Notes: a model not told the origin generated them from the sequence alone. A stretch of 44,548 bases of DNA from Candidatus Woesearchaeota archaeon (GCA_964528765.1 CAZGVA010000001.1:1-44548); one strand, 5' to 3'; positions 9,001 through 35,628 are shown, numbered from the stretch's first letter. Made by a program: numbers and translations.

Positions 9001-12000
9001 TGGATATAATAACATAACTCTTTCGCCAGTAGCGGTATTGTTTATAATATCATTATTATTACTTGTAGCTAACTTAATTGCCCAATGATGATCAACATAA
9101 ACAGTATTATTATATATTGATCCATTGTCTGCTGTATCATATAAAATTCCATAATCCTTACCCGTTCCATTCAATGAAACATTACAATTCTGCACTGTAA
9201 CACCCGACGCATTAACATATATTCCATAACTTTCATTTCCTTGGATTGTGTATCCTGCGCAATCAAATACGACATCTGCTGTTGTGATATTGATTATATA
9301 ATCAACCGTACAATCCATTATGTCTTCTTCTAAATCGGTTGATTCAGTAATTTCAGTATTACATAAGCTAAATTCTTCAAATGACCACATTCCCTCAGGC
9401 ACATTATTACCATAATCAATTCCACCCATAACTGTAATTATATCTTCTCCAGTGTTATTTCCATAGCTGACGTTTGCGTAAGTAAAGTTCTCAGCCATTG
9501 CTGAAGAATTGATCATCCAAGATACGCCAGTTCCAGTTACATGAGCATAATCGGATTCATTTCCAACGATATTTACCTCACCCGTAAATCCACTTGTATC
9601 ACTAAATCCCCTTATATGTGTGAAGTTAAGCATCGATTCCGGTCCTAAATTAAATACTCCCGTGCCTGAGATTTCACTTGTTACAGTTAAATCATATGTA
9701 TTTGAATAAAATGTATCGCTACTTCCAAGACTTAATGTTTCCGTAATAATATCGCCACTTGCGTAAGATGTATCGTTTTGAACTCTTAATAATTGATAGG
9801 TTGATCCAGTAATATTTACACCATTATAGTAATCTCCGTAGTAGATATTTCCGAAAGTTGATCCACCATCAATTGGAGCTTCTTCAAAGAAATTGAATCC
9901 CTCATTTATAGAGTCAACTAAACTTCCAGTATCTGTTTGAAGTGTTCCGGTAAGATTAATTCTACCCCAAGTAGTTCCAATAACATCTAAGGTTGTTGTC
10001 TTTCCGGGTTGAGCTGCAGATAAATTATAAAACTGTAACGTATTATCTACTGCAAAATATATGGTTCCATCGCCAGTCATGTTTACAGTAGATGTTTCTG
10101 ATGTGAATGTTCCTGCGCCTGCCCAGACTGTATCGGCTGTTGCTGTTCCATCATTACTTCCAATTGCGTCTGCTACATCTGTTCCAGTTCCTTCATCAAA
10201 TTGCCAGCAAGAAACTAGTTCGGACGGGTTGCTCATTGAGGTACATGGTTCAAACATATTAGCTCGGATTTCCGATTCTACTAAAGTTGTGTTATATATG
10301 GAAACTCTTCCGATTTGAGAGATTAAATTAAGCCCGATTCTAAAATCAACTGCTGCGCCATTATTTCCTGCTAAAGCAGTTTCATTTCCATCTAGCTTTC
10401 CATCAACATAAATTTGCTGATCATTGTTTTCCTCAAATACCCAAACAATATGGTGCCATTTTCCATCAGATACATTTGTTGTTCCCGTAACATTACTACT
10501 TGTTCCTGAAATAATCTTACCCATAGCAGTGCTATCAACAATATGTAATCCATATCCGTAGTTGCTTTTCCAAACAATATCTCCTGTGGTGTCTAATGTT
10601 TTAACCCACGCATCTATTGTTATATCATCACCTAACAGTAAGGTATCGGGAGTTCCCATATTTACATAAGGTCCATCCAAATCCAAAGCGCTCTTTCCAA
10701 TCAATCCGCCTGAAGATTGCCAGTTTTCTGAAACAGAAATTGTTGACTCACCTGCAGTAATCATTCCGTCTGTTGCAATTGTTAAATTGCTTACATATAT
10801 TGACTGATCCGAACCAGTATGCAAACGTCTAACACCAATAATCAGATTATGCACATCATCCAATGTTGAAGTTAATGTATATATATTCGCACCGCCACCA
10901 TTCAATAAAACATTATCAAATTCTCCAGTTCCAGCCGAATTTATATCAAGTGACGGATTACCCGCTGAAATAAGAATAAGACTTGCATTAGCTAAATGGG
11001 ACGTCGCATCCAAATCAATTGTATTATTAACAAACACTAAGGCATTTTGTGCATCAAAAGTTCCATCACTATTAAGTGTTCCACCGAACTCAGCTCGCTG
11101 TCCATTCAATTCTAATGTATCTCCACTTGTAACTGTAAATCCGTCGAACTCACAATCTCCGTCTAATCTTACTAATGTAGTATCTCCACCAGTCTCTAAG
11201 GCTGTTTGATAATCTATCCACTTAAACGCAATAGTTCCAACAGTAGTTGTAAGTCCGCCAGTGGTAGATATTATTCCGGGTTCGATTTGTGATTCTCCAT
11301 AGATTCTAAATTCATTTTCTCCTGTCCAAAATTCACTTGTACCATTTACTTCTGCGCCTGCTTTCAAAGTAAGTGTATTTTCATTAACCCTATTAACTAA
11401 TCCATCATTCAAAGTAAGAGCGTTCTCAATAGTTACGCCTTCATATATCCAATATGAACCAGAAGATATTGGTTGCATAATTACATCATAAAATATTGCA
11501 TCGTTAGCATATATTTTTGCTGTAGCAGTAGCACCATCAAATAAAACTGTTCCATTGTTATGTGTAAAAGTTCCATCATTATCAAAAGCAATTCCTGAAT
11601 TTGTAATTATTGTTGTTCCGTTTGTAGCGTTGTAAACTCCACCAGAGTTGATGGTTAGTGAACCAAAGCTTATACTGACGTAGTCTTGTACGCCCGAACC
11701 TCCACCATACATTGCGCCATCATAAATTACAACATTTCCAGCAACACTCAGTAATTTCCCTCCGGTGCTAGAACCTACGTCTCCAGATAATAAATGCAAG
11801 TCTCCATCCAAACCGGCACCATTTACAATCCTGAAGTAATTTCCGTCACCTATACTAATGTTTAAATTATTGTATCCCGTTCCTGCTGTTGCTAAATCTG
11901 CTTCAATAGTTGAGTCTTGAGCCGAAATAATTACGGTTCCACCGTTTCCATAATAAGTTCCATCATCATTAATTGCATAACTACCCCATTCACCCGTTAC

Positions 12001-15000
12001 ATTCATACTTTCAGGTGTTCCATCAAAAGTTCCTGCATTATACATTCCATCATGCATTATGATTCCACCACTGGATGCATTGAATATTCCATAATTTACC
12101 AAATTTCCAGTTATATTTGTTGTTCCCGTTGTAGCGTTGTAAACTCCGCTAGAGTTGATTGTGAGCGAACCGAAAGATATATCTGCAGTAGTTCCATCAA
12201 GAGTTCCGTCTACGACAGCATCGCCAATTACAGTTAAATCGAATCCGTAACAATCTAATTTTCCCGAACTTATAGTTAAATTACCTGGAATATATGTATT
12301 TTCATCAAAAATTGTTGCAGTATAAAGCGGATCAGTTAAATTGATAATCACATTCCATGGATAAAAACTACTACTAGGTGTTAAATCAATTAATGTGCTT
12401 TCGTCAGTTTTTATTATAAATGTTGCAGTATTCGAACCAAAACCGCCATCTAAATCTACTGCGTAATTTGAATATTCACTAGTAATATTAATATTAGCGT
12501 CATTTGGAGAAAAGATTGATCCTGATGCCGAATCGATTGCACCAAAAACGTGATCAACAGTATCTCCTTGCGCATCAAATTCACCGTTATCCTGTACCTG
12601 TAACAAACCCGTTACAATTATTGGATTATTATTAGTATCTAAATCACCATCGTCAATGATTAAATTATTTGAAACGGTTAATGGTGCTTGTAAATCAAAA
12701 TCATAAGTGGCACTATCCATATCAACTTCTAAATTATATGGATTTCCTGAATTACATTCAAAATCAATATTAGTTGCAGGTGATTGTACCATAAACTTTC
12801 CAGAATTTGCATTAAAGTCTCCGTCGCAATCTATTGCATAACCTACAACACATCCGATTGGTTCTGCGGTAGTACATTCATCAGATATTGTTGTTGTTCC
12901 GCTTGTAGCATCGTATGTTCCGCCAGATTTTATTGTTAAAGAGCCAAAAGAGTGGTCGCTTGTGTTTCCATATACGATTCCATCATCAATAAAAACATCT
13001 CCCGAAGCACTCATTGAGTCAAGTAAAACCAGTCCTGTTCCTGTTCCAGTATTTGTAATTTCAGTGTTGTTTATTATAGCTCCACCAAAAATTGCTGTTT
13101 GGTTAATTGCACTTGTGAAATTTAATGTGGATTCATCGCCATTGAATGTTCCGCCAGTTACCCAAAGTTCAGAGCTCATTGTACCATCATTTGACGTTGA
13201 GTGTGAATCTGCAACATCGGTTCCAGTTCCTTCATCAAATTGATACCAACCTTTCAACTCTGTTGTTGAAGATAATTCACTATATTTATCAAACATTAAA
13301 TCTCTAATCTCAGATTCTGTAAGAATCGAGTCCCAGAAAGAAACTCTTGCGATTTTTCCATCAAAAAATTGATCGTTTACATTAGTCCGACTGGCACCAA
13401 TTGCTGCGCGATTTATATTCCCCCAATTAATTGATGAACTTGGTGTAATTTCTTGTATAATTTTGCCATCAAGATACAATCTAAATAACGTTCCATCCCA
13501 AACCATCGCAGTATGATGCCAGACTCCAACAATTGGTACAATTCCCGAAGAACCCCCCGTCTTACCATCTGTACTAACTTTCAACATATTTGGAGTACTA
13601 CCATCGGATTTAGCAACTTGTATATTGCCCCACTCCGAATCATCTGATGCACCAAGCGATACAATCTCTTGGTGAGCTGTATCATATGCATCTAAATTAA
13701 ACCAACTTTCAACAGTAAATCCGTCAGATAAGGTCATATCTGCAACTACTGCGTCAATTTCCACGAGTGCGCCTTGATTATCATCAAATGCACTCTTACC
13801 AATTAATCCGCCTGAAGATTGCCAGTTTTCTGAGATAGTAATATTAGCAGAATTTGCCTCAAAAATACCTGTATTTGCAATAGTTAAATTACCTGAATAA
13901 AATTGTGTACTTGAATCTGAAGTATTCCATGTACCTGAACCAATTATTGTTCTTTTGCGCGCAGTAGCACCTGCTGAATTAATTTTATGCGTTCCATTTT
14001 GAATAAATAGTGTTTGACCCGCAATCTGTCCATCTTCAATATCAACATTTCCACCTGCTCCAGATAAGATAATTGTTGGTGGTGTATCTGCAGGACAAGA
14101 TCCATCTAAATCTGCTCCAGCATTAAAAATAACTAGTGCATCTGTTCCAAAATCAGTAGTGCCTGCCGTATCATAATAACCATCAAATTCTGCGCGGTGA
14201 TTACTTAGATTTAATGAGTCTCCACTTGAAAGTGTGAAAGCATCAAATTCACAATCTCCCGTTAAATTAATTGTTTTAGCAGTACTCTCCGTAGTTATAT
14301 CTTGTTGAACATCAACCCATTTCAAATTAATTGTCTGTGGGGAATAAACACCACTCATTAATGCTCTTGGATGTGCTACTTCGCTACTGATTATTACGGG
14401 ATAACGCTGATTTGCACCTCGAATAGTTGTGACTGCTTGACCCGAATTACCATATAAATAATCTAAGGTAATTGTTCCAGACTGTGAAGCATTACCCATA
14501 GTCAGAATTCGATTATCTGACGTAATATAAAATAAATCCGTACCGCCCAAGCCACTTAATTCATTAATGATAGTCATATCTGCCCTCATGTTAAGATTTC
14601 TTTGGGCTGCTGTTGCATCAGAAACAACATTATAAAAAGAATTACTACCTGTCCAATCTGATGCTGAATTCAAACCCCAATAGGCATTTCCATCGCCAGC
14701 TGTAAGTCGCTTGGATGAAACCGTTCCATCATTATGTGTGAATATTCCACTTATCTCAAAATCAGTGTGAATATTCGTTGTTCCACTTGTAGCTGAATAT
14801 TCTCCGCCAGCGTTTATTGTTAGGTTTTCAAATGTGTGGTCGCTTGTGTTTCCATATAATATTCCATCATCAATAAAAACATCTCCTGAAGCACTCATTG
14901 AATCAAGTAAAATTAATCCAGTTCCAGTTCCAGTGTTTGTAATTTCTGTTCGGTTTAGCATTACTCCGCCAAACATAGCAGTTTGATTGTATGTGCCAGT

Positions 15001-18000
15001 AAAATTAAATATAGCGTCATCGGCAATCAGTGTTCCTGCAGATGCCCAGACTGTATCTGCACTTGCTGTTCCATCGTTACTTCCAATTGAATCTGTAACA
15101 TCGGTTCCAGTTCCTTCATCAAATTGCCAGCAAGACACTAGATTTGTTTGACTCATATCTGCACATTTTGCAAACATATTTGCTCGTATTTCTGATACTG
15201 AAAGCTCTGCGTCATATATAGAGACTCTTGCAATTGATCCGTTGAAATAGAAACTTCCATCACTTCTACGACCAATAGTAAGCGGATTAGTTGTATCTGT
15301 AGATATGTCTTGTTCTTTAAAACCCTCATATTTACCATCAATATATATTTTTGTGGTTGTACCATTATTTGTAAATGCCACATGATGCCATTTATCTATG
15401 TCCAACGCAGTAGTACTTACTGCAAGATCTCCAGGAGTTCCATCATATAAATAAACCTGACCGGGATAACCAATACCATCACCTGTATATGTTCCAGAAA
15501 TACCCAATGCCCAAGTATTGGTGCTTTCATATTTGGAGATTGGATAATTTACTACTTGATGCGAATAGGATGTTGGTTTAAGCCAAGTTTCAACAGTAAT
15601 TTCATTCATATTAAGACTTGCGTCATTTCCTGCATCGACATATTCATTAGTTTTTGTTAAATCCAAAGCAGACTTTCCAATTAGTCCGCCTGAAGATTGG
15701 AAGTTATCTGTAACAGATATATTCGAAGAACGTGCTTGGAGTGTTCCACCCGTGGCAATTGTTAAATTATTTGTTTTTAATCCTTGGTTGTTTGTTGCGT
15801 GCGTATCTAAGATACCTGAACCAATAATGACATTTCTATTTGTACTTATGCTATTTGTGCTCAAAGTATATGTTCCATCTTGAACAAATACCGTTTGGCC
15901 TGCAAGCTGACCATCCTCAACATCGGTTGTACTTCCTGCTCCAGATAAAATAAATGTTGGTGGCGTATCTGCAGGACAAGCTCCATCTAAATTAATATAT
16001 CCATCAAATAATACAAGTGCATCTGTTCCAAAATTTGTAGTTCCAGATCCTTGATTGAAAATACCACCAAACCTGACTCGCTGTCCATTTATATCAAATG
16101 TTTCATCATTTGAAACCGTAACTGCATCAAACTCGCAATCGCCTTCCAAAGTAATTGTTGCAAGATTTGCAGATCCGCTATCAATGGTTATATCTGATTG
16201 GAAATCAACCCATTTAAATTTCCAGTTTGAACCTACGCGGTAATCCCACGTCCAAACACCATTTTCACTATCAATTATTCCTGGATATAGTTGACTTGCA
16301 CCTTCAATTGTAGCATTATCATTACTGCTAGCTAAAATAAATCCAGTTCCACCAACAGTATTATTTAAGATACCTTGTTGTGAATCATTACCTAAAATTA
16401 TGCCTGTACCATCATACATTTGAGGTACTCCACTATCTAAATGAAGTAAATTTAAAACGGTAAAATTCTCACGGAATCTCGTATTTGTTCCAGTCTCAAT
16501 AGTTAAGTTTTCAAAAATTGCTCCATTTGGAGAAATATCCACCGGATTAGCTGTTCCATTAAATACAACATTTCCATTATTATGTACAAACTCACCATTA
16601 TTATCGAAAACAATTGCGCCGCCACCCGATATGGTGGTATTTTCTGAAGATGCTAAATAGATTCCCGTGCTTTGAATAACTAATGAACCAAAAATTTGAT
16701 CGCCACCCAGACTTGCATTCAAAGTTCCATTGATTTCGGCATCACCTGTAACTTCATATGAAAATACTGAAGTATTTACAACAATTCCTTCAGAAATATT
16801 TAAATCAGTGCATGAAACATTGTCAACTAGTTCAAAACTTTGTACGGGGTTACATTGATCAAGGTCATCTAAACTGTAATTTGTAAATTCAGAGACATTA
16901 AATTCATAATCATCCCCGCCCAAATCAGAAATTTCCCCACAATAATCTCCACAAGCTTCATCATTTCTTAATGTGATTGGAAGACTTATTCCAGAAACAT
17001 CATAGAAAGTTAGATTTGCTGGTTGATTTAGTCCTTGGAAGCTAGCTGAATCAACATCAATTGAGTTTAATGTTATATCAATTCCATTTCCAAGTCCGAG
17101 TGTTCCTGCTTCAGTAACATCTAAATCTTCAATATTTTTCCAATTAACTTCTCCATAAGAATTATTATATATAATATTATTAAGATAATCTGACGTTGTG
17201 TCATCTTTTATTATATATGATGATGACGCAGTAATATTATTATTTAGGAAAATGTTATCGTAAGTCTGAGTAAAAGAAAGATAAATAGCTTCTGTAGCTG
17301 CAGTAATTTCATTATTATAGACATTACACCCTTTGGCATCTGTAACTTGTAGTGCTTTGCTCGTAGTTGCAGTTATTGTATTATAATATATATTGTTATA
17401 ATCACCATCATTATATATCCGTAATGACATAGAATCTGCACTTATAGTATTGTTATAAACTTCATTGAGATTTGACCGATAATATAAATATATTCCTTCA
17501 TCGTTTCCCACGCTGACAGTGTTATTTGCAACAATATTTGAGTCAGCATTATTGTGTAACATTATACCTCGATTTAAATCAACCGTAACGGTATTATTTT
17601 CAATCAATCCGTTACTTGCGCCCCAATAATATATTCCATAAGATTTACCCGTTCCATTAATGGAAAGGTTACAATTCTTTACAGTAACATTATCTCCAGT
17701 TACCCAAAATCCAGTATTTTCGTTTCCTTGGATTGTATGCCCTGCACAGTCGAATACTACGTCTGACGCAGTTATGTTGATTATGTAATCATTAGTACAG
17801 TCCATTATGTCTTCACTCAATTCTGTTGATGTTGTGATTTCAGTTCCACATTCTACAGAATTATCAATACTCCAATACATTGCTTCTTCATAAAACTCCT
17901 TGTAACTAGTCACGGTACGCAGCGGACTATATGAAGCCTCATTCATGCATCGAAGTGTTACACTACTTCCACCACCTATTTGATTATGAACTAGAAATCT

Positions 18001-21000
18001 GTTGGCTAAAAAGTTATGATTTTTTTCTACTTCTAAATTATACACAACTTCTTTTTCCTCAACTAAATATTTTTCAGTAATAATTTCCCGAGTTAAATCA
18101 TAAGATTCTGCATCAACCCCAATAAATACTTTTACCCATTGAATTAATTTAACAAATAAATTGTCTGATTTTACAAAAGTATTCTCGTCAAATATAAATA
18201 TCGTATCACCGACGCTTAACTCAGATGCATACACAAAATCCTTTTTAAAATCAAGCATATCTCCTACATTAATATTATTTTCTTTTGCAAATCCCGATTT
18301 AATTTCCAATACATATCTTGTGCTATTTAAATTCTTATCATATATTTTTCCAGGTAAAGCATTATGCTCCACCGCCAATACAACACCCTCAATATCTATC
18401 CAAATAATATCTAGTGAGTGTTTCAAAGTTTTAGTTTGTATTATTACATTGCCAATATCTTGAATCATAAACAAAACACCTTCATCTACCCAAGACTCTC
18501 GATCGGTTAATCCTTGAGTTTGTTCTTCTTTTGTATACAACCTATGTGGAGTAACAAGTTTTTCATTTTCTAGAACAATGTCAGTTTCGGTTAAAAATGA
18601 GTGGCTTCTAGTTGGTTTAACTGAATAATTATTTGCTTTCAGAAGATAATACTCTTGTGGTGAATACTCAAAAACATGTGTTACTCTATCTTTTTGTATT
18701 TTTCCAGTATCTACGTTAAAAGCGAAAATCGTATCATTAACTTTAATATCTTTTATTTTGACATCTCCAAATGTCGTATGCACTAAAGTGTCACCTGTAA
18801 GACATACATTATTCTCAATCTGTATCTGAAAATGAAGCTCATCCTCGTTATAATCCCAGCACGAGTCAGGTAGTGATTCATTAGTTGTTGTTGGTCCGCT
18901 TGCTGTATCCATTCTCACTTGTATTACACTTTCATTTGTTGCTCCTGCAGGTTTTGTATAATTGAAGTCACATACAGCAATCTGTCCATTACTTGAAGTG
19001 CCAAAAGTATCCCAATCACCATCATAAAAATTGGCTGCATCAACAGGACTTCCTGTACAACTATAACTTATATCTGGATCTTCTTGATAAGACCACTCAG
19101 GATCGTAAGCAAAATCACTAACTGAATCATTTTTATTATAAAAGTCAAATCTAATTGTTGCATAACCTGCAATGTGCATAAGATTGCTTAAGTAAGCTGT
19201 TTCTGAACAAGTGTAATTTTCAATTAGCCAATAATCTGGCTTAATTGATTGATTCTGGGCTAATTCTATGTATCTGTATGAATTATTCTGAGCATCTACA
19301 ATCAACAGAGAATCTGCTAAATTAATTGAATCATTAAGATTTGCCTCTCCGCAGGTCAGGTCTAAGAACCTCATTTCATCAACTGTTTCGTCTAAGTCAG
19401 TAAGTATCTCGGTCCAGTTGGCGTTTGGTGAAGAAATCTTCAAATCTGCAGTTCCACTTGTGTTGAAAGCAACTATCCATGTTTCTCCATCTCGCAAGTA
19501 TGTGTATGGATTCAAAACAATAATTTCAATTTCAAATACTTGATCTGAAGTGTGTGGTGTGATCCATTCTAACTTGTCAATTAAACCATCTTCATCCGCA
19601 TCAATCATCCATAAATCAATATTCTCATCCAGAGTAACATCTACTTTTGTTGTTGTAGTAATAACTTCAAAGTATGTTTCATTAGTAGTTTCATTAATCT
19701 GCTCAACTTCAGTAGTATTTTCTTGTATCCAGTACAACTGGATAGCAGATTCAGGAACTTGTTGCTCAAGAGTTGTATATGTAAGAATATTTTCATAGTG
19801 CAAATCTGAAGAAACTATAACTCTCTTTCCAAGATCTGTTGCTTCTTCAGTTGTTGTTGGAGCAGGAGTTTCATATTCAATAAGTAATTCATCATCAGAA
19901 GTGATATTATCATTAACAATAATTGTCTTGTTTGGACCATCTTCAAATGCTACATATCCTGTAATAGCCCCACTAAATGTTTGTTTTATCCAATTTACAA
20001 ATTTAATTAGTCCCAAATTATTTGTTTCGGAGACAGATGCTCCAGTTATTCCATAAACTTGCTCACTTGCGGGTATATCAAAACTTTCAGTTTCTGCTTC
20101 CGGATTAGCTAAGATATTTTCATCAGAAATATCATAAATTGAAATACCTTCAATATTCTCATCTGGAATTATCTCTTCAAAACCATGAGAATTAATTTTT
20201 TTGATTTTAATTTGAGTTGCATCTTCTGGAACTTCAATTAATAATTGTGTTGTATCGGATTCAGGCTGAACTAGAGTTGACCATTGAACGGGCTGGTTAA
20301 TAATTGCGTCAAATTGAACAGTTCTAACTCCCTCAGGTGTTTCGCTAATTATCTGCTCAATTTCAGGTGTATCATTTATTTCAGGAGTATTGTTCAATTC
20401 AGGAATTGTAAATTCTTCTTCAGGTGTTTCTTCGGTTTCATTCACAACTTCAGGTGTTTCAGTATCTTGTGGAATTGCTCCATAAACTACAAAATAGGTG
20501 ATTGATTCTTCTTCAGCAGGCATACTTGAGACTGCGCCAGTAACTGCATCTGAAATACCAAATTCTGTCTCTGAGACCGGGTCTTGGGTTGATTCTTCTA
20601 TATCTTTTTCAGGTGTTTCTTCTACTTCTTCAACTAGCTCTGGATCTTCTTGTGTTTCTTCTTTTTCAGATTGTTCTTCGGTTTTTTCAGGTATTTCAAA
20701 CTCAACTTCAGGTGTTTCTTCTTGTTCTGGTTGTTCTTCAGATTCAGTATCATTTGTTTCAGGTTGCTCTTCAGGTGTTTCAGATTGCTCAACAGATTCT
20801 TCAGAAGAAGTTGGAGATTCGTAAATTAAATTATCAAACACAATCTCAGCTTCAATACATAACTCATTTTCATAAACTTCGTTTTGAATTGCAAAGGATA
20901 TATCTGTTCCATCAGAAGTATAAACTGCAATTCCATCCATACAAACTTGTGGTTTGTATTCGTCAAAAGTTATTATTTGAGTAATTATTTCGTCTGACGG

Positions 21001-21162
21001 TGTTGCTATTATTGAGATTGAACCCTCCCAATCAGATTCAATGCCTAAAAGGCTATACCCAGTTAGAGGAGTTGTATTTTCATTAAGAATTGATACTAAA
21101 GATAACAGTGCTAATAACGCTATAACAAGTACAAAAATGGTACTATCTTTCTTAAATTCCAT
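1..21162 (-). CDS. giant secreted/cell-surface (adhesin-like) protein, N-terminal 7,054 codons; 3' end lies beyond window position 1
   Basis: Not in the supplied ORF track because there is no stop inside the window. ATG at 21160-21162 (alternative in-frame ATG at 21184-21186) gives MEFKKDSTIFVLVIALLALLSLVSILNENTTPLTG..., a KK plus hydrophobic signal anchor. Hand translation in the frame whose codons end at coordinates divisible by 3 is open and protein-like wherever I checked: 21162-20290, 18804-18421, 18048-17947, 15702/15097, 13830/13213, 10728/10174, 4944-4801, 3567-2971 and 60-1. Any in-frame stop would have produced a listed Met-to-stop ORF, and none exists. Only 61-131 aa antisense or out-of-frame scraps are listed across 21 kb. 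Many N-x-S/T sequons. Confidence 0.85.
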   Translation of the reverse strand, partial: MEFKKDSTIFVLVIALLALLSLVSILNENTTPLTGYSLLGIESDWEGSISIIATPSDEIITQIITFDEYKPQVCMDGIAVYTSDGTDISFAIQNEVYENELCIEAEIVFDNLIYESPTSSEESVEQSETPEEQPETNDTESEEQPEQEETPEVEFEIPEKTEEQSEKEETQEDPELVEEVEETPEKDIEESTQDPVSETEFGISDAVTGAVSSMPAEEESITYFVVYGAIPQDTETPEVVNETEETPEEEFTIPELNNTPEINDTPEIEQIISETPEGVRTVQFDAIINQPVQWSTLVQPESDTTQLLIEVPEDATQIKIKKINSHGFEEIIPDENIEGISIYDISDENILANPEAETESFDIPASEQVYGITGASVSETNNLGLIKFVNWIKQTFSGAITGYVAFEDGPNKTIIVNDNITSDDELLIEYETPAPTTTEEATDLGKRVIVSSDLHYENILTYTTLEQQVPESAIQLYWIQENTTEVEQINETTNETYFEVITTTTKVDVTLDENIDLWMIDADEDGLIDKLEWITPHTSDQVFEIEIIVLNPYTYLRDGETWIVAFNTSGTADLKISSPNANWTEILTDLDETVDEMRFLDLTCGEANLNDSINLADSLLIVDAQNNSYRYIELAQNQSIKPDYWLIENYTCSETAYLSNLMHIAGYATIRFDFYNKNDSVSDFAYDPEWSYQEDPDISYSCTGSPVDAANFYDGDWDTFGTSSNGQIAVCDFNYTKPAGATNESVIQVRMDTASGPTTTNESLPDSCWDYNEDELHFQIQIENNVCLTGDTLVHTTFGDVKIKDIKVNDTIFAFNVDTGKIQKDRVTHVFEYSPQEYYLLKANNYSVKPTRSHSFLTETDIVLENEKLVTPHRLYTKEEQTQGLTDRESWVDEGVLFMIQDIGNVIIQTKTLKHSLDIIWIDIEGVVLAVEHNALPGKIYDKNLNSTRYVLEIKSGFAKENNINVGDMLDFKKDFVYASELSVGDTIFIFDENTFVKSDNLFVKLIQWVKVFIGVDAESYDLTREIITEKYLVEEKEVVYNLEVEKNHNFLANRFLVHNQIGGGSSVTLRCMNEASYSPLRTVTSYKEFYEEAMYWSIDNSVECGTEITTSTELSEDIMDCTNDYIINITASDVVFDCAGHTIQGNENTGFWVTGDNVTVKNCNLSINGTGKSYGIYYWGASNGLIENNTVTVDLNRGIMLHNNADSNIVANNTVSVGNDEGIYLYYRSNLNEVYNNTISADSMSLRIYNDGDYNNIYYNTITATTSKALQVTDAKGCNVYNNEITAATEAIYLSFTQTYDNIFLNNNITASSSYIIKDDTTSDYLNNIIYNNSYGEVNWKNIEDLDVTEAGTLGLGNGIDITLNSIDVDSASFQGLNQPANLTFYDVSGISLPITLRNDEACGDYCGEISDLGGDDYEFNVSEFTNYSLDDLDQCNPVQSFELVDNVSCTDLNISEGIVVNTSVFSYEVTGDAEINGTLNASLGGDQIFGSLVIQSTGIYLASSENTTISGGGAIVFDNNGEFVHNNGNVVFNGTANPVDISPNGAIFENLTIETGTNTRFRENFTVLNLLHLDSGVPQMYDGTGIILGNDSQQGILNNTVGGTGFILASSNDNATIEGASQLYPGIIDSENGVWTWDYRVGSNWKFKWVDFQSDITIDSGSANLATITLEGDCEFDAVTVSNDETFDINGQRVRFGGIFNQGSGTTNFGTDALVLFDGYINLDGACPADTPPTFILSGAGSTTDVEDGQLAGQTVFVQDGTYTLSTNSISTNRNVIIGSGILDTHATNNQGLKTNNLTIATGGTLQARSSNISVTDNFQSSGGLIGKSALDLTKTNEYVDAGNDASLNMNEITVETWLKPTSYSHQVVNYPISKYESTNTWALGISGTYTGDGIGYPGQVYLYDGTPGDLAVSTTALDIDKWHHVAFTNNGTTTKIYIDGKYEGFKEQDISTDTTNPLTIGRRSDGSFYFNGSIARVSIYDAELSVSEIRANMFAKCADMSQTNLVSCWQFDEGTGTDVTDSIGSNDGTASADTVWASAGTLIADDAIFNFTGTYNQTAMFGGVMLNRTEITNTGTGTGLILLDSMSASGDVFIDDGILYGNTSDHTFENLTINAGGEYSATSGTTNIHTDFEISGIFTHNDGTVSSKRLTAGDGNAYWGLNSASDWTGSNSFYNVVSDATAAQRNLNMRADMTIINELSGLGGTDLFYITSDNRILTMGNASQSGTITLDYLYGNSGQAVTTIRGANQRYPVIISSEVAHPRALMSGVYSPQTINLKWVDVQQDITTESTAKTINLTGDCEFDAFTLSSGDSLNLSNHRAEFDGYYDTAGTTDFGTDALVIFNAGADLDGSCPADTPPTIILSGAGGNVDIEDGQIAGQTLFIQNGTHKINSAGATARKRTIIGSGTWNTSDSSTQFYSGNLTIANTGIFEANSANITISENWQSSGGLIGKSAFDDNQGALVEIDAVVADMTLSDGFTVESWFNLDAYDTAHQEIVSLGASDDSEWGNIQVAKSDGSTPNMLKVSTDGKTGGSSGIVPIVGVWHHTAMVWDGTLFRLYLDGKIIQEITPSSSINWGNINRAAIGASRTNVNDQFFDGKIARVSFWDSILTESEIRDLMFDKYSELSSTTELKGWYQFDEGTGTDVADSHSTSNDGTMSSELWVTGGTFNGDESTLNFTSAINQTAIFGGAIINNTEITNTGTGTGLVLLDSMSASGDVFIDDGIVYGNTSDHSFGSLTIKSGGTYDATSGTTTISDECTTAEPIGCVVGYAIDCDGDFNANSGKFMVQSPATNIDFECNSGNPYNLEVDMDSATYDFDLQAPLTVSNNLIIDDGDLDTNNNPIIVTGLLQVQDNGEFDAQGDTVDHVFGAIDSASGSIFSPNDANINITSEYSNYAVDLDGGFGSNTATFIIKTDESTLIDLTPSSSFYPWNVIINLTDPLYTATIFDENTYIPGNLTISSGKLDCYGFDLTVIGDAVVDGTLDGTTADISFGSLTINSSGVYNATTGTTNITGNLVNYGIFNASSGGIIMHDGMYNAGTFDGTPESMNVTGEWGSYAINDDGTYYGNGGTVIISAQDSTIEADLATAGTGYNNLNISIGDGNYFRIVNGAGLDGDLHLLSGDVGSSTGGKLLSVAGNVVIYDGAMYGGGSGVQDYVSISFGSLTINSGGVYNATNGTTIITNSGIAFDNDGTFTHNNGTVLFDGATATAKIYANDAIFYDVIMQPISSGSYWIYEGVTIENALTLNDGLVNRVNENTLTLKAGAEVNGTSEFWTGENEFRIYGESQIEPGIISTTGGLTTTVGTIAFKWIDYQTALETGGDTTLVRLDGDCEFDGFTVTSGDTLELNGQRAEFGGTLNSDGTFDAQNALVFVNNTIDLDATSHLANASLILISAGNPSLDINSAGTGEFDNVLLNGGGANIYTLTSTLDDVHNLIIGVRRLHTGSDQSIYVSNLTIATDGMITAGESTISVSENWQSSGGLIGKSALDLDGPYVNMGTPDTLLLGDDITIDAWVKTLDTTGDIVWKSNYGYGLHIVDSTAMGKIISGTSSNVTGTTNVSDGKWHHIVWVFEENNDQQIYVDGKLDGNETALAGNNGAAVDFRIGLNLISQIGRVSIYNTTLVESEIRANMFEPCTSMSNPSELVSCWQFDEGTGTDVADAIGSNDGTATADTVWAGAGTFTSETSTVNMTGDGTIYFAVDNTLQFYNLSAAQPGKTTTLDVIGTTWGRINLTGTLQTDTGSLVDSINEGFNFFEEAPIDGGSTFGNIYYGDYYNGVNITGSTYQLLRVQNDTSYASGDIITETLSLGSSDTFYSNTYDLTVTSEISGTGVFNLGPESMLNFTHIRGFSDTSGFTGEVNIVGNESDYAHVTGTGVSWMINSSAMAENFTYANVSYGNNTGEDIITVMGGIDYGNNVPEGMWSFEEFSLCNTEITESTDLEEDIMDCTVDYIINITTADVVFDCAGYTIQGNESYGIYVNASGVTVQNCNVSLNGTGKDYGILYDTADNGSIYNNTVYVDHHWAIKLATSNNNDIINNTATGERVMLLYPDSIDNTISNNVFTSTDEYALYFYDGCNNNTVTDNQLDVTNEYGIRLRTSSDNNVSNNNITAVGGSAVYIELSSENNILQNNIINVTGSTMDYGIYMTASDHNTIDNNLIEVEDYYGVYLTGSTYNNITNNYIVVLNREGISLASSSTNNRIISNNVTAAEYNSIRLSSSSSNIVTDNIAVAISGSYGLQISGDDNIITNNNITANNKAITINGAHNNLLQNNIITADSYSGISLVSPAGSNILLNNNITAATPNVILDDSGISYNNTLIYNNSQGQIVWNSTNLNVTESGTLGIDNGITITSNMIDVDSTSFQGLNQSANLTFYDVSGIIHPMPLRNYADCGDYCSEITNVGGGTYYFNVSEFTNYSVGDTCSQEITASKTLQANIMDCTNDYIINITASDVVFDCDGHTIQGTGDRAIMLTAGNITVRNCNISLTGSDSDYGIYVWTTSSVIYNNTIYVKDDQAIVALGGMNNLNISYNNITVDGQYAIDLDHVWGYGPDNSNIHNNDITAATGAVAIRTGDSENNSVWDNNITVSGSRAVYLTGTTSRSVFTNNYIKAGDDEAVYISSSDYNNFTSNIINTTGDDFGIYMTDSDSNIIDDNVIEVKDRYGIYLTSSDYNIMNNNLVNVVSHYGIYVTSNSNDNNITNNNLSASGEVTQFNSGPNNLLKDNDLYATGSYTVVLSSDSNIVDNNKISTPGAQAMQVNTADLNIISNNNLSGLSVVLTFVGDSSENILLNNNISASSAYTIDDASGVGVSNLLIYNNSQGQVIWNSTNLTVLESGIVGLDNGITISENMIDVDSTSFQGLNQSANLTFYGLEAGQTPTTLRNEVDCGAYCSAVTETGSGNYYFNVSEFTNYSLQFNLAPVIISANITPVDPFDRSRLMGYCNATDGDAEDVTYYYQLYMNDTLNLTGEVGTFTQGIEKNIYNISSADTHPGSNWTLSCLATDGIDNSSWINSSTRTISACGMGINESGTYTLAYNITGCTDDYIVRITAANVVFDCDGYTIQGTGDYGIDVLAENVEIKNCNINLTGSDSDFGIQVYGSAYDNTLINTTNITLSGSTSEYGIYVRGTPYNTQIQNCIITLDGSGGSIGIWTYGADDLVADSNTIYTKDDRSVYARNCNRCNWTNNDFHSDGSYAFQLYASDTLNNWVYNNNITGASWAILLMNTDRSILENNRVYSEASNDHAIVFDDADHHILRNNNFTNQFDYSVYLTDSSHNNIIVNNNITATANIILDDTGGSYLNSLIYNNSLGQVVWNSTDLSVTESGTLGLDNGITISENLIDVDSDSFQGLNQSANLTLYGISGYKVPVAFRNNITCTSEYCSDAYNDTAETFYFNVSQFTNYSLGEGNVAPTISGVDVTPDSPTTDNDLTCTVAGWSDAESDPENYIFQWYKDDVLNLTIEQSADSHILARDNLTNADNWNCTVTPFDGLVNGSDASDTVVIAQGCVFDTAPIVTLTANLVCTELIVDEGITLDTDEYNITASGEASINGTLNASLGGNQSFNSILINESGTYSATSATTTLSGDFDNDGTFIHNDGTVDFASDTVAMNILGSSESEFYNITVSGTDKLDLHVPIIVRSSLANPANDVIRLYSTLTLGNSSSQGTLTGGWQTTVNSRLQGASQLYPGIVSDEPYYHFTTSTILKWLDFQDDVTSTSGNSVTITLDGDCEFDAFTVSADDTLDLNGQRAEFDGTLNIDGAIDSTDSIIFADLVDYDGTGWTGESTTKIIMTGSGNNDLNTPTKEVIFFNGGTFTSSRSFTSNLANTLIIGSGVYDLEGRSQDIDNIIIATGAELDGGTAIIEVEENWQSSGGLIGKSALDLDGTKNVNCSEDNSLEITTAGTFDVWFKTTASTMDTTYGLISRATGTATGYRMYMSNGNVRITIDNGPSTSAMSPEDVNDGKWHNAVGTYDGANLLLYIDGKIVASSEVSGSIASTNDFTIGSLFTAGDFTSYWDGEIGRVSIYDAALSEADIRANMFETCVDLSQTNLVSCWQFDEGTGTDVADSIGSNTGNASASTIWASSGAFTKGTSIVNMTGDGNFTYLGNLDMYSLETAASGKTTTLDPFVISGDTAEQITLDGNLTVGSGTFNRDASTVFRLNNPGTFNDGGATLADQYIFYWQSLEPIPASTYPYLIVSTKTRFSGDATVNGYLSIGSGDEVNTSDNNIQVSYITVTGTLNVDPGAVFNFTSTLATGFGTSTGAVNVEGNLTDYATISGSNYWKINASAITETFNYANVSYGNNTGTDIIYVYDGVDYGNNVPDGMWIFSGGPTPGNCTFAVNTTLTANLTCYNVTVNEDVTVSTDVYSINGTADAEISGILNASLGGNQEFGSVRIYSTGTYEATNQTTIISNEASSGYAFIHDGILNANDGLINITTINPTKIDPNGNTGNIYDLEIATGGVIENSWGSAGAAYTIDNNLIISSGTYEINIHALTVTGDVIVTGTLDVITANIGNYSQSFGSLTINSGGEYDATSGNTTITNTTVSNDLECTSGTVTHNNGTFVFASDTGMRIRACADPLYNVIVDMSGATLQMPYFGNSNPEGMRIEGNLTVVEGLVVPTQRNLNVSGDVVIEDGGEIRKDTTDTYNESYYFGSLTINSGGVYNATYETTTITSKESVDNLAWNNEGTFYNNSGTVVFDHLEDWVAIDGNLDEENSFNNVIIESNTVWRDNITANDMNITSGYFKSSSTHEDEVVNINGDLIVNGGTFGDGDETGSHYLGSLTILSGTYIATNGTTTISGNFNNSGTFTHNDGTATSKRFVDDNVAVNWGSSSSSNWDGNNSFYNVEVDATEGQRNLEMKTNMTIINELSGVGSVDLFYITENNLILTMGNTSQSGIISVDYLYGHNGQTITTLQGASASYLANVSDEVGAPNLLSATSYSPSNLILKWVDVQKDIVTNYKTYNKTITIEEEVWFNGFTFRLGDTLNITDSSTLYVDSLTINGTLDSGTGNITNNTNTQWLANFDNSEAYSWDSTTISNGNNTGSIAINAQT
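2971..3567 (-). other. LamG-like lectin domain 4
   Basis: ENWQSSGGLIGKSALDLDGTKNVN...KWHNAVGTYDGANLLLYIDGK...IGRVSIYDAALSEADIRANMF...LVSCWQFDEGTGTDV. Frame verified at 2971-3015 and 3520-3540. Confidence 0.75.
4651..4929 (-). other. ~93-aa Ig-like beta-sandwich domain after beta-helix module 4
   Basis: Verified translation: APTISGVDVTPDSPTTDNDLTCTVAGWSDAESDPENYIFQWYKDDVLNLT...NWNCTVTPFDGLVNGSDASDTVVI. Confidence 0.45.
4945..6096 (-). repeat. beta-helix module 4 (NosD/PbH1-like)
   Basis: CGMGINESGTYTLAYNITGCTDDYIVRITAANVVFDCDGYTIQGTGDYGIDVLAENVEIKNCNINLTGSDSDFGIQV..., ending IDVDSDSFQGLNQSANLTLYGISG..FNVSQFTNYSL. Confidence 0.7.
6097..6402 (-). other. ~100-aa Ig-like beta-sandwich insert between beta-helix modules 3 and 4
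   Basis: APVIISANITPVDPFDRSRLMGYCNATDGDAEDVTYYYQLYMNDTLNLTGE...NWTLSCLATDGIDNSSW. Paralogous to 4651..4929. Confidence 0.45.
6415..7887 (-). repeat. beta-helix module 3 (NosD/PbH1-like)
   Basis: CSQEITASKTLQANIMDCTNDYIINITASDVVFDCDGHTIQGTGDRAIMLTAGNITVRNCNISLTGSDSDYGIYV..., ending IDVDSTSFQGLNQSANLTFYGLEAG..FNVSEFTNYSL. Confidence 0.7.
7897..9363 (-). repeat. beta-helix module 2 (NosD/PbH1-like)
   Basis: CNTEITESTDLEEDIMDCTVDYIINITTADVVFDCAGYTIQGNESYGIYVNASGVTVQNCNVSLNGTG..., many (S/T)xNNxIxNN coils, ending IDVDSTSFQGLNQSANLTFYDVSG..FNVSEFTNYSV. DNA is roughly 75-90 percent identical by eye to modules 1, 3 and 4 at both ends. Confidence 0.7.
10174..10728 (-). other. LamG-like lectin domain 3
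   Basis: ENWQSSGGLIGKSALDLDGPYVNMG...KWHHIVWVFEENNDQQIYVDGK...IGRVSIYNTTLVESEIRANMF...LVSCWQFDEGTGTDV. Confidence 0.7.
13213..13830 (-). other. LamG-like lectin domain 2
   Basis: ENWQSSGGLIGKSAFDD...VWHHTAMVWDGTLFRLYLDGK...IARVSFWDSILTESEIRDLMF...KGWYQFDEGTGTDV. Confidence 0.7.
15097..15702 (-). other. LamG / concanavalin-A-like lectin domain 1 (Laminin_G_3-like) of the giant protein
   Basis: FQSSGGLIGKSALDL...KWHHVAFTNNGTTTKIYIDGK...IARVSIYDAELSVSEIRANMF...LVSCWQFDEGTGTDV. Confidence 0.7.
16870..17850 (-). repeat. right-handed parallel beta-helix module 1 (NosD/PbH1-like) of the giant protein
   Basis: Starts CGTEITTSTELSEDIMDCTNDYIINITASDVVFDCAGHTIQGNENTGFWVTGDNVTVKNCNLSINGTG.., continues as ~22-aa NN-I/T coils, and ends ..IDVDSASFQGLNQPANLTFYDVSG...CGDYC...FNVSEFTNYSL. 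Confidence 0.7.
17983..18804 (-). other. Hint (intein-like / bacterial-intein-like type) autoprocessing domain, 274 codons, inside the giant ORF (aa 787-1060)
   Basis: Verified codon by codon. ...IENNV|CLTGDTLVHTTFGDVKIKDIKVNDTIFAFNVDTGKIQKDRVTHVFEYSPQEYYLLKANNYSVKPTRSHSFLTE..., with the Cys1 codon at 18802-18804 and a block-B-like T-x-x-H (TRSH) about 65 residues in. ...EKEVVYNLEVEKNHNFLANRFLVHN, with the terminal Asn codon at 17983-17985, followed by QIGGGSSVTLRC. The +1 residue is Gln, not Cys/Ser/Thr. No LAGLIDADG/HNH-like motif seen in the ~170-aa middle part. Confidence 0.8.
20329..20820 (-). repeat. acidic Glu/Thr/Pro-rich low-complexity linker of the giant protein (about aa 115-278)
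   Basis: Translation: ESPTSSEESVEQSETPEEQPETNDTESEEQPEQEETPEVEFEIPEKTEEQSEKEETQEDPELVEEVEETPEKDIEE...TETPEVVNETEETPEEEFTIPELNNTPEINDTPEIEQIISETPEG. ETPE-type units are reiterated. The plus-strand Ser/Leu-rich ORFs 20498..20824 and 20589..20984 are its antisense shadows. Confidence 0.8.
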
Positions 21163-23592: not shown

Positions 23593-26500
23593 TTATTTTT
23601 GCTTAAATAATGCACTCATCTTCATACGTTTAGGCATAGTTTTTGCAGATGTTTTTTTCTTAATTGTATGACGTTTCTTATGTTTACGAATAGATTTTCC
23701 TTTATGCTTAAACATACTAGTTTTTGCAATTAATAATGCACCAATAATTACTGCTAGAACTGCAGTAACAATTAATGAAGTTTTTGCAGCAGGCAAACCC
23801 ACATCACGCTCAAGTTCAATTATAGATCCAGTTAAGCCATCCACTTCATACTCACATGCATCACAATCATTGCCTCCGCAATCAACACTTTCTTCATCAT
23901 AATTCCAAATATTATCTGAACAATGTATTGGATTACATTTTCTGGTCTCAATTGGCTTGTCAATTATTGAATTGCAATTACTTACATCCTTACATGTTCT
24001 TGCTTGAGTACCATTCACACAATTATACCAAGTACTACAACTCCACTCTTCGGTACAATTTTGGTTGTTTTTATTTACAACGGTAGCGCCGCCACCATTA
24101 TTATTATCATTATTTCCTGAAGGCGCTGGCGTATCTGCTTCATTTGAAGAAGTATCTACTGAGAAATTAACTGAATCAACATTAGCATTACCTGCAAGAT
24201 CTTCTACATACAAATTAAATGTATACTCTCCATCAGTATCAACTGCAAAAGTTATATCTGTGCAATCTGTCTCAGTATGTGGAATCACCGTATTTTCTGT
24301 AACTGCAAAAGTAACATTATATATACAATTGAGAGTGGTTTCATCCGATACATCATAATCAATGGATATATCTGTTGTTGAACTATATACACCAGTTGGC
24401 TCATCAACAGAAACTGATGGATTAATGGTATCTATACCAAATGTAGCATTACTGGAAAAGCCTTCACGATTCTGTGAATCATTGCAAGTCACTTGCCATA
24501 CATAATAACCTTCAGCTAAATTATCAAGATTAAACAAATTTGATTCTCCATTTGAAACCAACGTTTGATTAGATTGATTGAATTTAAATGTTCCAGTAAA
24601 ATTACTCCAAAGCTCACAAACTGCAAGATTTAAGCCCGATGTAACTGTATAATTGAAATTAATATTTGAACTATCTGATAGCCAAAGGTTATCTGGACTA
24701 TTTACATTAATTGCGGGAGCAGTAGTAACTACTGTAAATGTACTATTATCCTGTCCAAAAAATCCAATTGAATCGTTAGCATACACGTAAATTGTATAAG
24801 TTCCATCAGAAACCGAAAATGTGGAATTATCACAATTTAATATAGTAGTATTGGTTAAGCCTTCATTGAGAGAATACCAACATGAATCGATGGTTGAAAC
24901 ATCAGTAATTTCATATTCCAAAGGAACTGGAACAGATGCATATTGCGATTCTTCTGGAATTAAAATGGTGACAATTGGTGCAGTTGTATCAACTGAAAAA
25001 TCAATACTTGAAGAATTTTCATTTCCTGCAAGATCAACACAATAAATAATTAATGAATTACTACCTTCTGAAGCCGTTATGGTAGTATTTGGTGTGAACG
25101 TTGTATTTGATACGCCATCATCAAAAGAATATTTCCATGTGCTAATTTCTTCATTTGATGAAACATTAATATCGACTAAAGGTGTTATATATATGGTATT
25201 TTCAGGTCTAGCAATCTCAACGGATGGGTATATTGAATCAACACTAAATGTAACTGAATCACTTGCTTCTTCCCCCAAAGTATCATTAACATAAACATAG
25301 ATTGTATATTCACCATCATCAGCCATATCAAAAGTAAGATTATTACAAGAAGCTATAATTATATTCGACCCCTCATCAAGATTATACCAGCAGGAATCAA
25401 TATTATCGTCTGAATCTGCCACTTCATATTCTAAAGAAATTCCAGTCTGATATGTATAGGTATCTTCTTCTTCAGGAGCTAAAATAGATATTGTTGGTGC
25501 AGCGTTTAATATAGTATAATCTACGGTAACATTGTATAGGGCTGGAGCAGTATTGTAATTATTTGTTTCAAGCGAAACAAAATATTGGAAATATTGATTA
25601 TCTGAAATTGAAAGAGTTTGCGGAGATTGGTCAGCAATATCTATCCAAATTTCACCTGAACATGACGAATCAGCACAACTACGAATTTTGAAATCTAAAA
25701 TCGTTTCTTGAGCAACAGTGATTGTACCTTTAATATCACCATTTCCGCCATTAAAATTAATTGCAGATTTTGACCAAGTTATACCGTCTGTAGAATTCCA
25801 TACATCCTCATCAGCTTCAAAAATATATGCCATGTCACCAATAATTGTACTTGATTTTACATGTTGACCCTCTCCGGAATTATAATCATCACTTGTTTTG
25901 GTCCATGTTCCATGCGCATCTGAAGCTCGCCAAATATCATCATCACCTTCAACAACATAATAATATTGAGAAGTTACAATAAATGCGCCATTTGAATTAC
26001 CTTCTCCGTCATTAAAATCATCCTTAACAAGATTCCAAGAAGTTCCATCTAATGAATTCCACACATCAGATTGTGAGTCAACAACCCATAACGTACCGTC
26101 AGCATCAATATCCATTCCCTTAATATTACCATTTCCATCATTAAAATCATCATATACTTTTGTAAATGTAATTGCATTATCTATTGAAACCCATACATCT
26201 TCATTGCCATCAATAATGAACAATGCACTGCCATTATATTCTATAAATTTACTACTTGAGCCACTATCTGAATTAAAATCATCATTTATTTTTGTGAATG
26301 ATTGAGCAAAATCTGCTCCACGCCAGACATCCTGGTTATCAATAACATAAAAATAATTACCATCATAAGCAAGTCCATCAGCATCATTACCAACACCACC
26401 ATTATAATCATCTAAAACTAGTGTCCAAGTAAAACCCTGATCAATTGATTTCCAAATATCACTACTAGAATCTACGGCATATAATAAATAAGATTGGAAT

Positions 26501-35138: not shown

Positions 35139-35628
35139 ATTCATATGCTAAACCATCTAGTTTTATTTCTGTAACTATTTTAAACTGCTTAGAATCGCGT
35201 ATTACAGATAACTTATCTGAATCGCTAACTACTAATGTAAACGTAGCACCGTCTTTTTTAAAAGTAATTCCTGGGTATTGAATAGTTAAACCCATATTTT
35301 CTGACCGCAAATCATCAGGGGTTTCAAAATCGATTTCATTTATGTCCAACGTCTCAAACCCTGCTAAATTAGTTTCGCAACTACCTTCGAAGTCATCTAG
35401 ATAAGCGTCCATAACTTGTAAAGCTGAATATTTCATATATTTTTCTAAATAAAATCGTGCACCTTCAGCAACAGTATAACTGTTTAGTAAATGTATTTGG
35501 TCTGCCCCAATTTCAGTTGTTTCAGTTAAAGCTAAATTATTTGAGCGAATAAATACAATTGCAACGAATATTAAAATAAACATAATTCCAATATCAATCA
35601 GTGACCCTTTTTTATTCAGAGTTATCAA
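35104..35628 (-). CDS. prepilin-like (class III signal peptide) protein, 174 aa
   Basis: MITLNKKG-SLIDIGIMFILIFVAIVFI. Overlaps the upstream gene by 17 nt. Confidence 0.6.
   Translation of the reverse strand: MITLNKKGSLIDIGIMFILIFVAIVFIRSNNLALTETTEIGADQIHLLNSYTVAEGARFYLEKYMKYSALQVMDAYLDDFEGSCETNLAGFETLDINEIDFETPDDLRSENMGLTIQYPGITFKKDGATFTLVVSDSDKLSVIRDSKQFKIVTEIKLDGLAYEFTCDDYDQFYD

Follow-up and report, generated by a model that had tools for sequence, protein, structure and literature searches.

What does an intein-like domain do where the nucleophile of classical protein splicing is missing? The question is raised by a 44,548-nt stretch of DNA from a Candidatus Woesearchaeota archaeon (GCA_964528765.1 CAZGVA010000001.1:1-44548; the window, to whose full length all positions refer). 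It encodes a giant predicted surface protein that contains a Hint domain followed by glutamine at the +1 position. Nested within this Hint domain we find a second domain, DUF192, and we refer to the two together as the cassette. From the sequence, we propose with moderate confidence that the cassette is a non-splicing, self-cleaving Hint autoprocessing domain with a nested DUF192, similar to A-type bacterial intein-like (BIL) or pre-toxin Hint (PT-HINT) domains and carried by a Sec-exported giant archaeal surface protein.

The Hint domain and the DUF192 nested in it

A six-frame scan finds the host frame open on the minus strand from 1 to 21225 (7,075 codons), continuing past the window start. 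Plus-strand translation at 17893-18924 gives many stops, and the coding strand is the minus strand. An earlier sequence-only reading had placed the domain at 17983-18804, codons 787-1060, without naming a strand; both ranges are exact when counted from the methionine at 21162, and the feature lies on the minus strand. Hint residue 1 is residue 787 of the giant protein.

1-21162, minus: giant open reading frame (ORF) of at least 7,054 aa, 3' end beyond the window (six-frame scan, translation, Pfam)
18805-21162, minus: N-terminal flank ('N-extein'), residues 1-786, ending ...IENNV (translation, homology searches)
18583-18804, minus: N-terminal part of the Hint domain, residues 1-74, with block A Cys1 (18802-18804) and block B T65-R-S-H68 (18601-18612)
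18238-18582, minus: DUF192 (PF02643), Hint residues 75-189, 115 aa (Pfam, alignments, AlphaFold2 (AF2), Foldseek)
17983-18237, minus: C-terminal part of the Hint domain, residues 190-274 (translation, intein models, alignments), containing the L196-x-x-G-D motif
18100-18192, minus: second insert of about 30 aa, Hint residues 205-235
18001-18045, minus: block F, VYNLEVEKNHNFLAN
17983-17988, minus: block G, His273-Asn274
17980-17982, minus: +1 codon CAA, encoding Gln, a non-nucleophile
17833-17979, minus: C-terminal flank IGGGSSVTLRC...YWSIDNSVECGTEIT, residues 1062-1110, no detectable homologue

The minus strand translates as ...ELHFQIQIENNV/CLTGDTLVHTTFGDVKIKDI...KPTRSHSFLTE...VVYNLEVEKNHNFLANRFLVHN/QIGGGSS, slashes marking the two junctions, and more widely as ...DELHFQIQIENNV/CLTGDTLVHTTFGDVKIKDI...VKPTRSHSFLTE...VVYNLEVEKNHNFLANRFLVHN/QIGGGSSVTLRC. 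All Hint motifs are present: Cys1 (Cys787 of the giant protein, codon TGT), block B T65-R-S-H68, block F VYNLEVEKNHNF, and the terminal His273-Asn274. The sequence-only reading had proposed that blocks A, B, F, and G make up a complete Hint domain, to be checked with Hint, intein, and PT-HINT models, and the intein models bear it out. The domain scores 46.6 bits with Pfam Intein_splicing (cut-off 35.8, E=4e-12), 28.6 with NCBIfam intein_Nterm (TIGR01445, cut-off 24.5), and 28.7 with intein_Cterm (TIGR01443, cut-off 15.6). The native sequence stays below the cut-off of PT-HINT (PF07591; 25.9 versus 27.7), and the Pfam Hint model (PF01079) gives no match to the domain. Among PDB sequences, phmmer matches the native domain to the Spl DnaX and Ssp DnaB mini-inteins.

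The absence of a +1 nucleophile, also part of the earlier reading, holds at the codon level. The single-base neighbors of CAA encode Lys (AAA), Glu, stop, Pro, Arg, Leu, and His, never Cys, Ser, or Thr. Since no one-step route leads from CAA to a codon for any of these nucleophiles, their absence is not a one-base sequencing artefact, and a base-call error is unlikely.

The interval of ~170 aa between blocks B and F, in which the earlier reading saw no homing-endonuclease motif, is not featureless. It is occupied by DUF192 (115 aa) and the second insert (~30 aa). DUF192 enters right after block B (...TRSHSFLTET/), ahead of the conserved L-x-x-G-D strand, and scores 57.2 bits in context (Hint residues ~91-186) and 60.1 bits for the isolated segment 75-189, against a Pfam cut-off of 27. 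The family-invariant residues G98, L99, D132, and E167 are kept, as are F112, K125, and W135. An AF2 model computed from a DUF192-only alignment, the second of our two models, resolves that domain only, with a predicted local distance difference test score (pLDDT) of 80-96 for the segment. Foldseek places this model among DUF192 crystal structures with E values of 2.7e-8 to 6.3e-8, template-modeling (TM) scores (target) of 0.70-0.75, and root-mean-square deviations (rmsd) of 2.4-2.6 Å. These matches include 3M7A (E=2.7e-8, TM 0.70, rmsd 2.4 Å) and 3PJY (E=3.6e-8, TM 0.75); no significant match of known function was returned for the DUF192 model.

When residues 75-189 are deleted in silico, 159 aa remain, and they align with the Ssp DnaB mini-intein 1MI8 from end to end (2-158 versus 4-155); it is this sequence alignment that supports a putative horseshoe β fold with juxtaposed N- and C-termini. 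The remainder scores 55.2 bits with Intein_splicing over model positions 9-155 of 155. With PT-HINT it rises to 33.9, above the cut-off of 27.7, covering only profile positions 1-95 of 137. In a comparison that used no dedicated BIL-A profile, it matches the Clostridium thermocellum BIL domain 2LWY at E=1.2e-4 versus 7e-6 for the DnaX/DnaB mini-inteins, a similarity to the BIL no stronger than to true mini-inteins.

The second insert (~205-235) has no counterpart in related mini-Hints and coincides with a gap in the 1MI8 alignment. Wu et al. (1998) are said to have removed the endonuclease at this site to make the Ssp DnaB mini-intein, and we take it to be the canonical endonuclease site. In the window domain the position holds the small second insert instead, and DUF192 sits directly after block B.

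Relatives of the two domains

An exhaustive search of 1.84 billion representatives gave 1,897 matches, and the results below come from the best 150 of them (at least 46.8 bits). The best-scoring Hint relatives are secreted proteins with 3-4 tandem Hint units of ~132 aa (P0002, P0003, P0007, P0016, and others), for which PT-HINT is the first Pfam class. Another relative, P0059, is annotated as a YD-repeat protein and comes from a Candidatus Roizmanbacteria genome of the candidate phyla radiation (CPR). Over 70 Hint units from the closest relatives, Cys1 is conserved in 84%, Thr65 in 94%, His68 in 97%, the Asn256 of the block F 'VYNL' in 93%, and His273-Asn274 in 99%. The +1 residue is Lys in 59 of these 70 units and Cys, Ser, or Thr in 3.

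The window domain keeps every catalytic position conserved in these units, including the block F Asn, and has a Gly-rich stretch after +1 (QIGGG) like that of its relatives (KGG(G)). By these sequence features the domain is assigned to a non-splicing Hint clade, predicted to retain the chemistry of thioester formation and Asn cyclization without the splicing nucleophile, and not to the decayed inteins. That all catalytic residues persist in a clade systematically devoid of a +1 nucleophile argues for selected cleavage chemistry over decay.

A canonical class 1 intein would look different at the +1 position, which here is not Cys, Ser, or Thr, at the host site, which is not conserved, and at block F position 4, where Asn256 replaces Asp; the C-terminal His-Asn of block G is shared with that class. 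The likeness to class 1 mini-inteins (Ssp DnaB 1MI8, Spl DnaX 7CFV) lies in the end-to-end alignment after removal of DUF192 and in the intein-model scores. Inteins that contain an endonuclease likewise hold a foreign domain in the gap between blocks B and F, but there it is a nuclease and not an exported DUF192.

A-type BILs are defined by a C-terminal His-Asn, no +1 nucleophile, and a non-conserved host (PMC4031507, PMC7765530), and they occupy variable regions of non-conserved secreted proteins (PMC7765530). The BIL work of Amitai (2003) and Dassa (2004) enters here as represented in PMC4031507 and PMC7765530. The window domain fits this definition, with intein-like blocks A, B, F, and G, Cys1, a C-terminal His-Asn, no +1 nucleophile, and a variable, non-conserved secreted host. 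It differs from A-type BILs in its archaeal host, in the DUF192 after block B, and in the second insert of ~30 aa; the window domain is known here from sequence alone.

With the tandem PT-HINT 'poly-Hint' proteins and the CPR YD-repeat protein it shares the 'VYNL' block F, the His-Asn followed by a non-nucleophile, and the Gly-rich stretch after +1. Those relatives are mini-Hints of ~132 aa that contain no nested domain; as a rule their -1 residue is Gly and their +1 residue Lys. The window domain, in contrast, is single and near the N-terminus; it does not lie immediately upstream of a C-terminal toxin, and ~6,000 aa or more of adhesin-like β-helix/LamG repeats follow, with the C-terminus beyond the window, where a distant toxin domain could lie. 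The likeness to A-type BILs and pre-toxin Hint domains that had been proposed is supported: the BIL working definition fits, and the nearest relatives are of PT-HINT type, also without a +1 nucleophile.

Other members of the search result deserve mention in their own right. The tandem mini-Hint family (P0002, P0003, P0007, P0016) has signal peptides, 2-4 or more units, and a near-invariant junction ...VHN-KGG(G)-CFL... with no +1 nucleophile; self-cleavage would cut these proteins into single Hint units. P0002 carries a Tim44-like domain (Pfam) C-terminal to its Hint units, and the end of P0003 appears similar. In P0037, residues 1383-1704 form an intein whose block B-F gap contains NYN (a PIN-like nuclease, PF01936, 1455-1600) in place of LAGLIDADG or HNH, which may be an unconventional homing nuclease. 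A viral contig of JGI metagenome 3300025669 (L034, IMGVR_UViG_3300025669_000871) encodes at 1535-1612 an intein N-terminus 69% identical to Hint residues 1-26, so similar Hint N-termini occur on a viral contig from this metagenome; another of its contigs (L031) encodes an identical L10e protein.

The DUF192 segment has a different set of relatives. More than 100 stand-alone DUF192 proteins of ~150 aa, all among the best 150 matches, align to the middle part of the cassette only, with E values down to 5e-14. The closest DUF192 homologues are ~155 aa long and have N-terminal hydrophobic segments. In a collection of 5.8 billion proteins, the best 120 homologues contain PF02643 only, are nearly all ~141-182 aa long, and come mostly from Patescibacteria; one of 299 aa consists of two DUF192 copies. 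Occasional multi-domain DUF192 proteins are tandem repeats or fusions with a radical-SAM (RlmN-like) domain. The window DUF192 resembles the DUF192/UPF0127/COG1430 proteins of known structure (3M7A, 3PJY) in Pfam score, in the invariant Gly-Leu, Asp, and Glu, and in predicted fold; unlike the 120 stand-alone homologues, it sits inside a Hint domain and lacks a signal peptide of its own, and its WMKDM motif no longer has the Trp and Met.

Clues to what DUF192 does are few. We observe weak, sub-threshold resemblance of DUF192 proteins to MazE/AbrB-like and molybdopterin-binding barrel domains, and there is a hint from sequence that DUF192 may be a small ligand-binding barrel. In CPR genomes, the neighborhoods of stand-alone DUF192 genes contain housekeeping genes only and give no functional hint, and the literature searched reports no function for DUF192, COG1430, or PF02643. 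Saro_0823, the DUF192 protein of PDB 3M7A, has been detected experimentally among periplasmic proteins, its signal peptide cleaved off (PMC3608174).

We find no second example of the combined architecture. DUF192 alone typically scores 47-69 bits, so a protein with both domains should rank near the top of the exhaustive search; none of its best 150 matches contains Hint together with DUF192. With the cassette as query, a word-indexed protein search returned one mini-intein only, and in GTDB genomes, JGI metagenome contigs, and viral contigs we saw intein-block matches with no Hint-nested DUF192. At five viral loci the matches are restricted to the N- or C-terminal blocks of an intein. A tblastn search with the DUF192 part against 24 loci, drawn from the genome and metagenome scans plus the long related contig described below, had no match, and the literature searched does not mention DUF192 together with inteins. 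Judged by sequence, among the best 150 matches listed and with truncated ORFs poorly represented, the nested Hint(DUF192) architecture appears unprecedented.

Predicted processing of the giant protein

An acidic linker and a conserved module follow the N-terminal hydrophobic signal/anchor of the giant protein; next come the Hint/DUF192 cassette and, after it, β-helix (NosD) and LamG repeats. The part downstream of the Hint domain has at least 5,994 aa of these repeats (Pfam), its β-helix region starting at about residue 1121 (window 17308-17802) and its true C-terminus lying beyond the window. The linker, which separates the N-terminal anchor from the first globular parts, is an acidic Glu/Thr/Pro-rich low-complexity segment with ETPE-type repeats (residues ~120-290; 20293-20805, minus strand). 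Overall, the N-terminal flank contains 14% Glu and 2.4% Lys.

The cassette does not follow the anchor and linker directly, as had been thought. The 786-aa N-terminal part includes a module at residues ~540-695 (19078-19545, minus strand) that is conserved in other metagenomic proteins, with 46-52% identity to parts of four of them (P0152-P0155). Right after the motif AYDP these proteins diverge into different domains (PF10102 in P0152, PF24517 in P0153), which indicates module shuffling at exactly that boundary. A long related contig, L004, shares only the upstream module (residues 547-695) and then runs straight into a β-helix, with no Hint domain. Together, these relatives place the cassette at a module boundary of a shuffled, variable protein. 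A comparison of giant homologues with and without the insert, suggested earlier, yielded L004 for the latter and none for the former. The host as first described, a variable secreted giant protein of an archaeon, agrees with the signal, the shuffled modules, and the archaeal genes on the contig.

On L004, the giant β-helix/LamG gene (9196-20729) is called as several ORFs, a split that probably stems from frameshifts or assembly errors, and a separate 849-aa protein (4521-7070) contains an intein with LAGLIDADG_3.

The sequences next to the cassette are poorly conserved. Residues 696-786 (91 aa) and 1061-1110 (~50 aa) have no detectable homologue in the word-indexed 5.8-billion-protein collection. 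The flanks spliced in silico gave no significant homologue (best in Pfam CBM_6, E=0.069; best in the PDB an antibody light chain, E=0.14), and the window holds no paralogue of them. The cassette contains 10.9% Lys plus Arg, compared with a mean of 3.0 ± 1.2% and a maximum of 6.2% across other 274-aa windows of the giant protein. The GC content at third codon positions (GC3) is 0.19 for cassette and host gene alike, and nucleotide composition shows no sign of recent foreign origin of the cassette. This island of basic residues at host-equal GC3 suggests a self-contained globular module under its own constraints that has been resident in the gene for some time.

Given the signal sequence of the host, the N-terminal hydrophobic segments of the DUF192 relatives, and the periplasmic Saro_0823, the predicted setting of both the Hint host and its DUF192 partner is extracytoplasmic. 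The sequence suggests, as the most likely function, self-cleavage outside the cell at either junction or at both. Once the protein is exported and folded, Cys787, aided by T65 and H68, would turn the Val786-Cys787 peptide bond into a thioester. Separately, Asn1060, aided by His1059, would cyclize and break the Asn1060-Gln1061 bond. With Gln at +1, classical splicing cannot reach its branched intermediate, and the main products should be cleaved chains. These would be a 786-aa N-terminal fragment bearing the signal/anchor, a free 274-aa Hint-DUF192 cassette, and a C-terminal β-helix/LamG passenger of ~6,000 aa or more. The passenger would start with Gln, a residue that can form pyroglutamate when N-terminal.

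Minor ligation by aminolysis may accompany cleavage, as in type A BILs. Splicing of the M. magnetotacticum BIL is reported to have been rescued by a change of its +1 residue. In type A BILs the N-terminal thioester forms, Asn cyclization cleaves, and cleavage products outweigh splicing (PMC4031507). DUF192, extracytoplasmic and traveling with the Hint domain, may bind a ligand or modulate cleavage. The outcome could be release of the passenger of at least 6,000 aa, or merely an unlinked N-terminal part if a C-terminal anchor is present.

Several observations weigh against self-cleavage as we propose it. The Hint part has a pLDDT below 50 in both AF2 models (30.7 for the single-sequence model), which bears on active-site geometry with a 115-aa insert. 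Residues -1 and +1 are Val and Gln, compared with mostly Gly and Lys in the related clade, and with so unusual a pair reaction rates are not predictable. The window copy of DUF192 has other residues in place of the Trp and Met of the near-invariant WMKDM motif. The cassette is also a singleton, with no orthologue in the searches run that would show its conservation. As to the consequence of cleavage, release or rearrangement, the C-terminus of the giant protein lies beyond the window.

An alternative fate of the same intermediates is religation. The α-amino group of Gln1061, freed by cyclization of Asn1060, would attack the Val786 thioester, joining ...IENNV-QIGGGSS..., excising the cassette, and leaving the giant protein as one chain. 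Such splicing without a side-chain nucleophile has been described for type A BILs (PMC4031507), and the residues for thioester formation and Asn cyclization are all present. The detectable relative 2LWY ligates without nucleophilic side chains, according to a title cited in PMC4031507. We nevertheless consider religation unlikely as the main outcome, since cleavage exceeds splicing in characterized BILs (PMC4031507) and the flanks form no recognizable conserved single domain that would need repair. Furthermore, the GGG after +1 is like the inter-Hint linkers of the related clade (HN-KGG-C) and not a structural element of the host.

It is likewise improbable that the cassette is catalytically silent, a fossil of domain shuffling with only a structural or binding role in a chain that stays uncleaved. 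Its singleton status, the unusual Val and Gln at the junctions, and the possibility that large inserts disturb the fold would all fit such a view, as would the host-equal GC3, by which the cassette is not a recent arrival. Decay would, however, be expected to have cost some of the catalytic positions conserved in the active-type clade, and all are intact. The content of basic residues, unlike that of the rest of the protein, suggests that constraints of its own still act on the cassette.

A third possibility takes the Hedgehog C-terminal autoprocessing domain as its model. There, too, a Hint domain in a secreted protein is coupled to an accessory non-catalytic region and uses thioester chemistry at Cys1, which is predicted here, and the accessory region recruits an external nucleophile (PMC7765530). 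By analogy, DUF192 would bind a small molecule, glycan, lipid, or partner-cell component, and a nucleophile of this ligand would resolve the Cys787 thioester and become covalently joined to the 786-aa fragment. The invariant Asp132 and Glu167 and the confident predicted fold of DUF192 would be compatible with ligand binding, and the domain adjoins the catalytic T65 and H68 in sequence, right after block B. We regard the transfer as very unlikely. Neither literature nor structure searches gave a ligand or activity for any DUF192, the AF2 model does not yield the relative orientation of the two domains, and the unique arrangement leaves the idea without comparative support. The two systems also differ in build: in Hedgehog a sterol-recognition region comes after the Hint domain, and a C-terminal His-Asn is absent, whereas the window domain has a nested accessory domain, unrelated in sequence, and keeps the His-Asn that Hedgehog-type domains do not need.

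A more specific version, speculative and of slight probability, is an archaeal contact-triggered transfer device. DUF192 would recognize a ligand on the cell's own envelope or on a host cell and present a nucleophile to the Cys787 thioester, so that only on contact is the adhesin cleaved and one fragment covalently tethered. If true, this would provide a first function, ligand or adduct recognition, for the widespread orphan family DUF192/COG1430, and a first case of a non-nuclease effector domain nested in a Hint domain.

Scarcely credible is a decayed or atypical mobile intein with DUF192 in place of the homing endonuclease: although Intein_splicing scores exceed those of PT-HINT and both P0021 (LAGLIDADG) and P0037 (NYN) carry inserts in the block B-F interval that DUF192 occupies here, the reading is already disfavored by the +1 Gln, the unconserved host site, a block F Asn and +1 pattern that fit the non-splicing clade, and the export of DUF192 proteins (one experimentally periplasmic), which is incompatible with a role in DNA homing.

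Hint domains that lack a +1 nucleophile are known from secreted proteins of bacteria (BILs, pre-toxin HINT), and the present case adds a giant surface protein of an archaeon to their hosts. New in the searches run is an exported DUF192/COG1430 nested where inteins normally carry the homing endonuclease. If active, the cassette would offer a simple handle on the maturation of giant adhesin-like proteins and a natural Hint scaffold, useful for intein engineering, in which 115 aa inserted directly after block B are tolerated. It would also be a rare functional clue for DUF192, a family that has two crystal structures and occurs extremely often in Patescibacteria/CPR. If inactive, it would be a curious product of domain shuffling, and without recurrence in other genomes it may be a one-off product of that process.

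Neighboring genes

Archaeal genes neighboring the giant ORF on the contig include uL16 of the archaeal/eukaryotic type and Dph2 (arCOG04112), and the GC content is ~33%. It is plausible that the organism is DPANN-like, with a small genome.

A second large surface protein of 1,272 aa is encoded at 23593-27411 on the minus strand. It has an N-terminal signal, LamG_3 and Ig-like repeats, and a Cys-rich stretch, and ends in a transmembrane anchor and a basic tail. C-terminal anchoring is by this token in use in this genome, which bears on the outcome of any cleavage of the giant protein.

Further along the minus strand, at 35104-37513 and 39226-44512, lies a run of small and medium ORFs whose N-termini resemble archaeal class III (pilin-like) signal peptides. 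These begin with M..KKG or KKA followed by ~20 hydrophobic residues, for example MKKGEIAFTTIVTLVIV, MLSKKGDITAIKLIVV, and MQSKKAISNMILLLIL. Pfam gave no match to the three of these ORFs that were searched (36533-37513, 39226-40143, and 42000-43496). Strikingly Cys-rich members of the run lie at 40346-41152, 42000-43496, 43687-44007, and 44111-44512.

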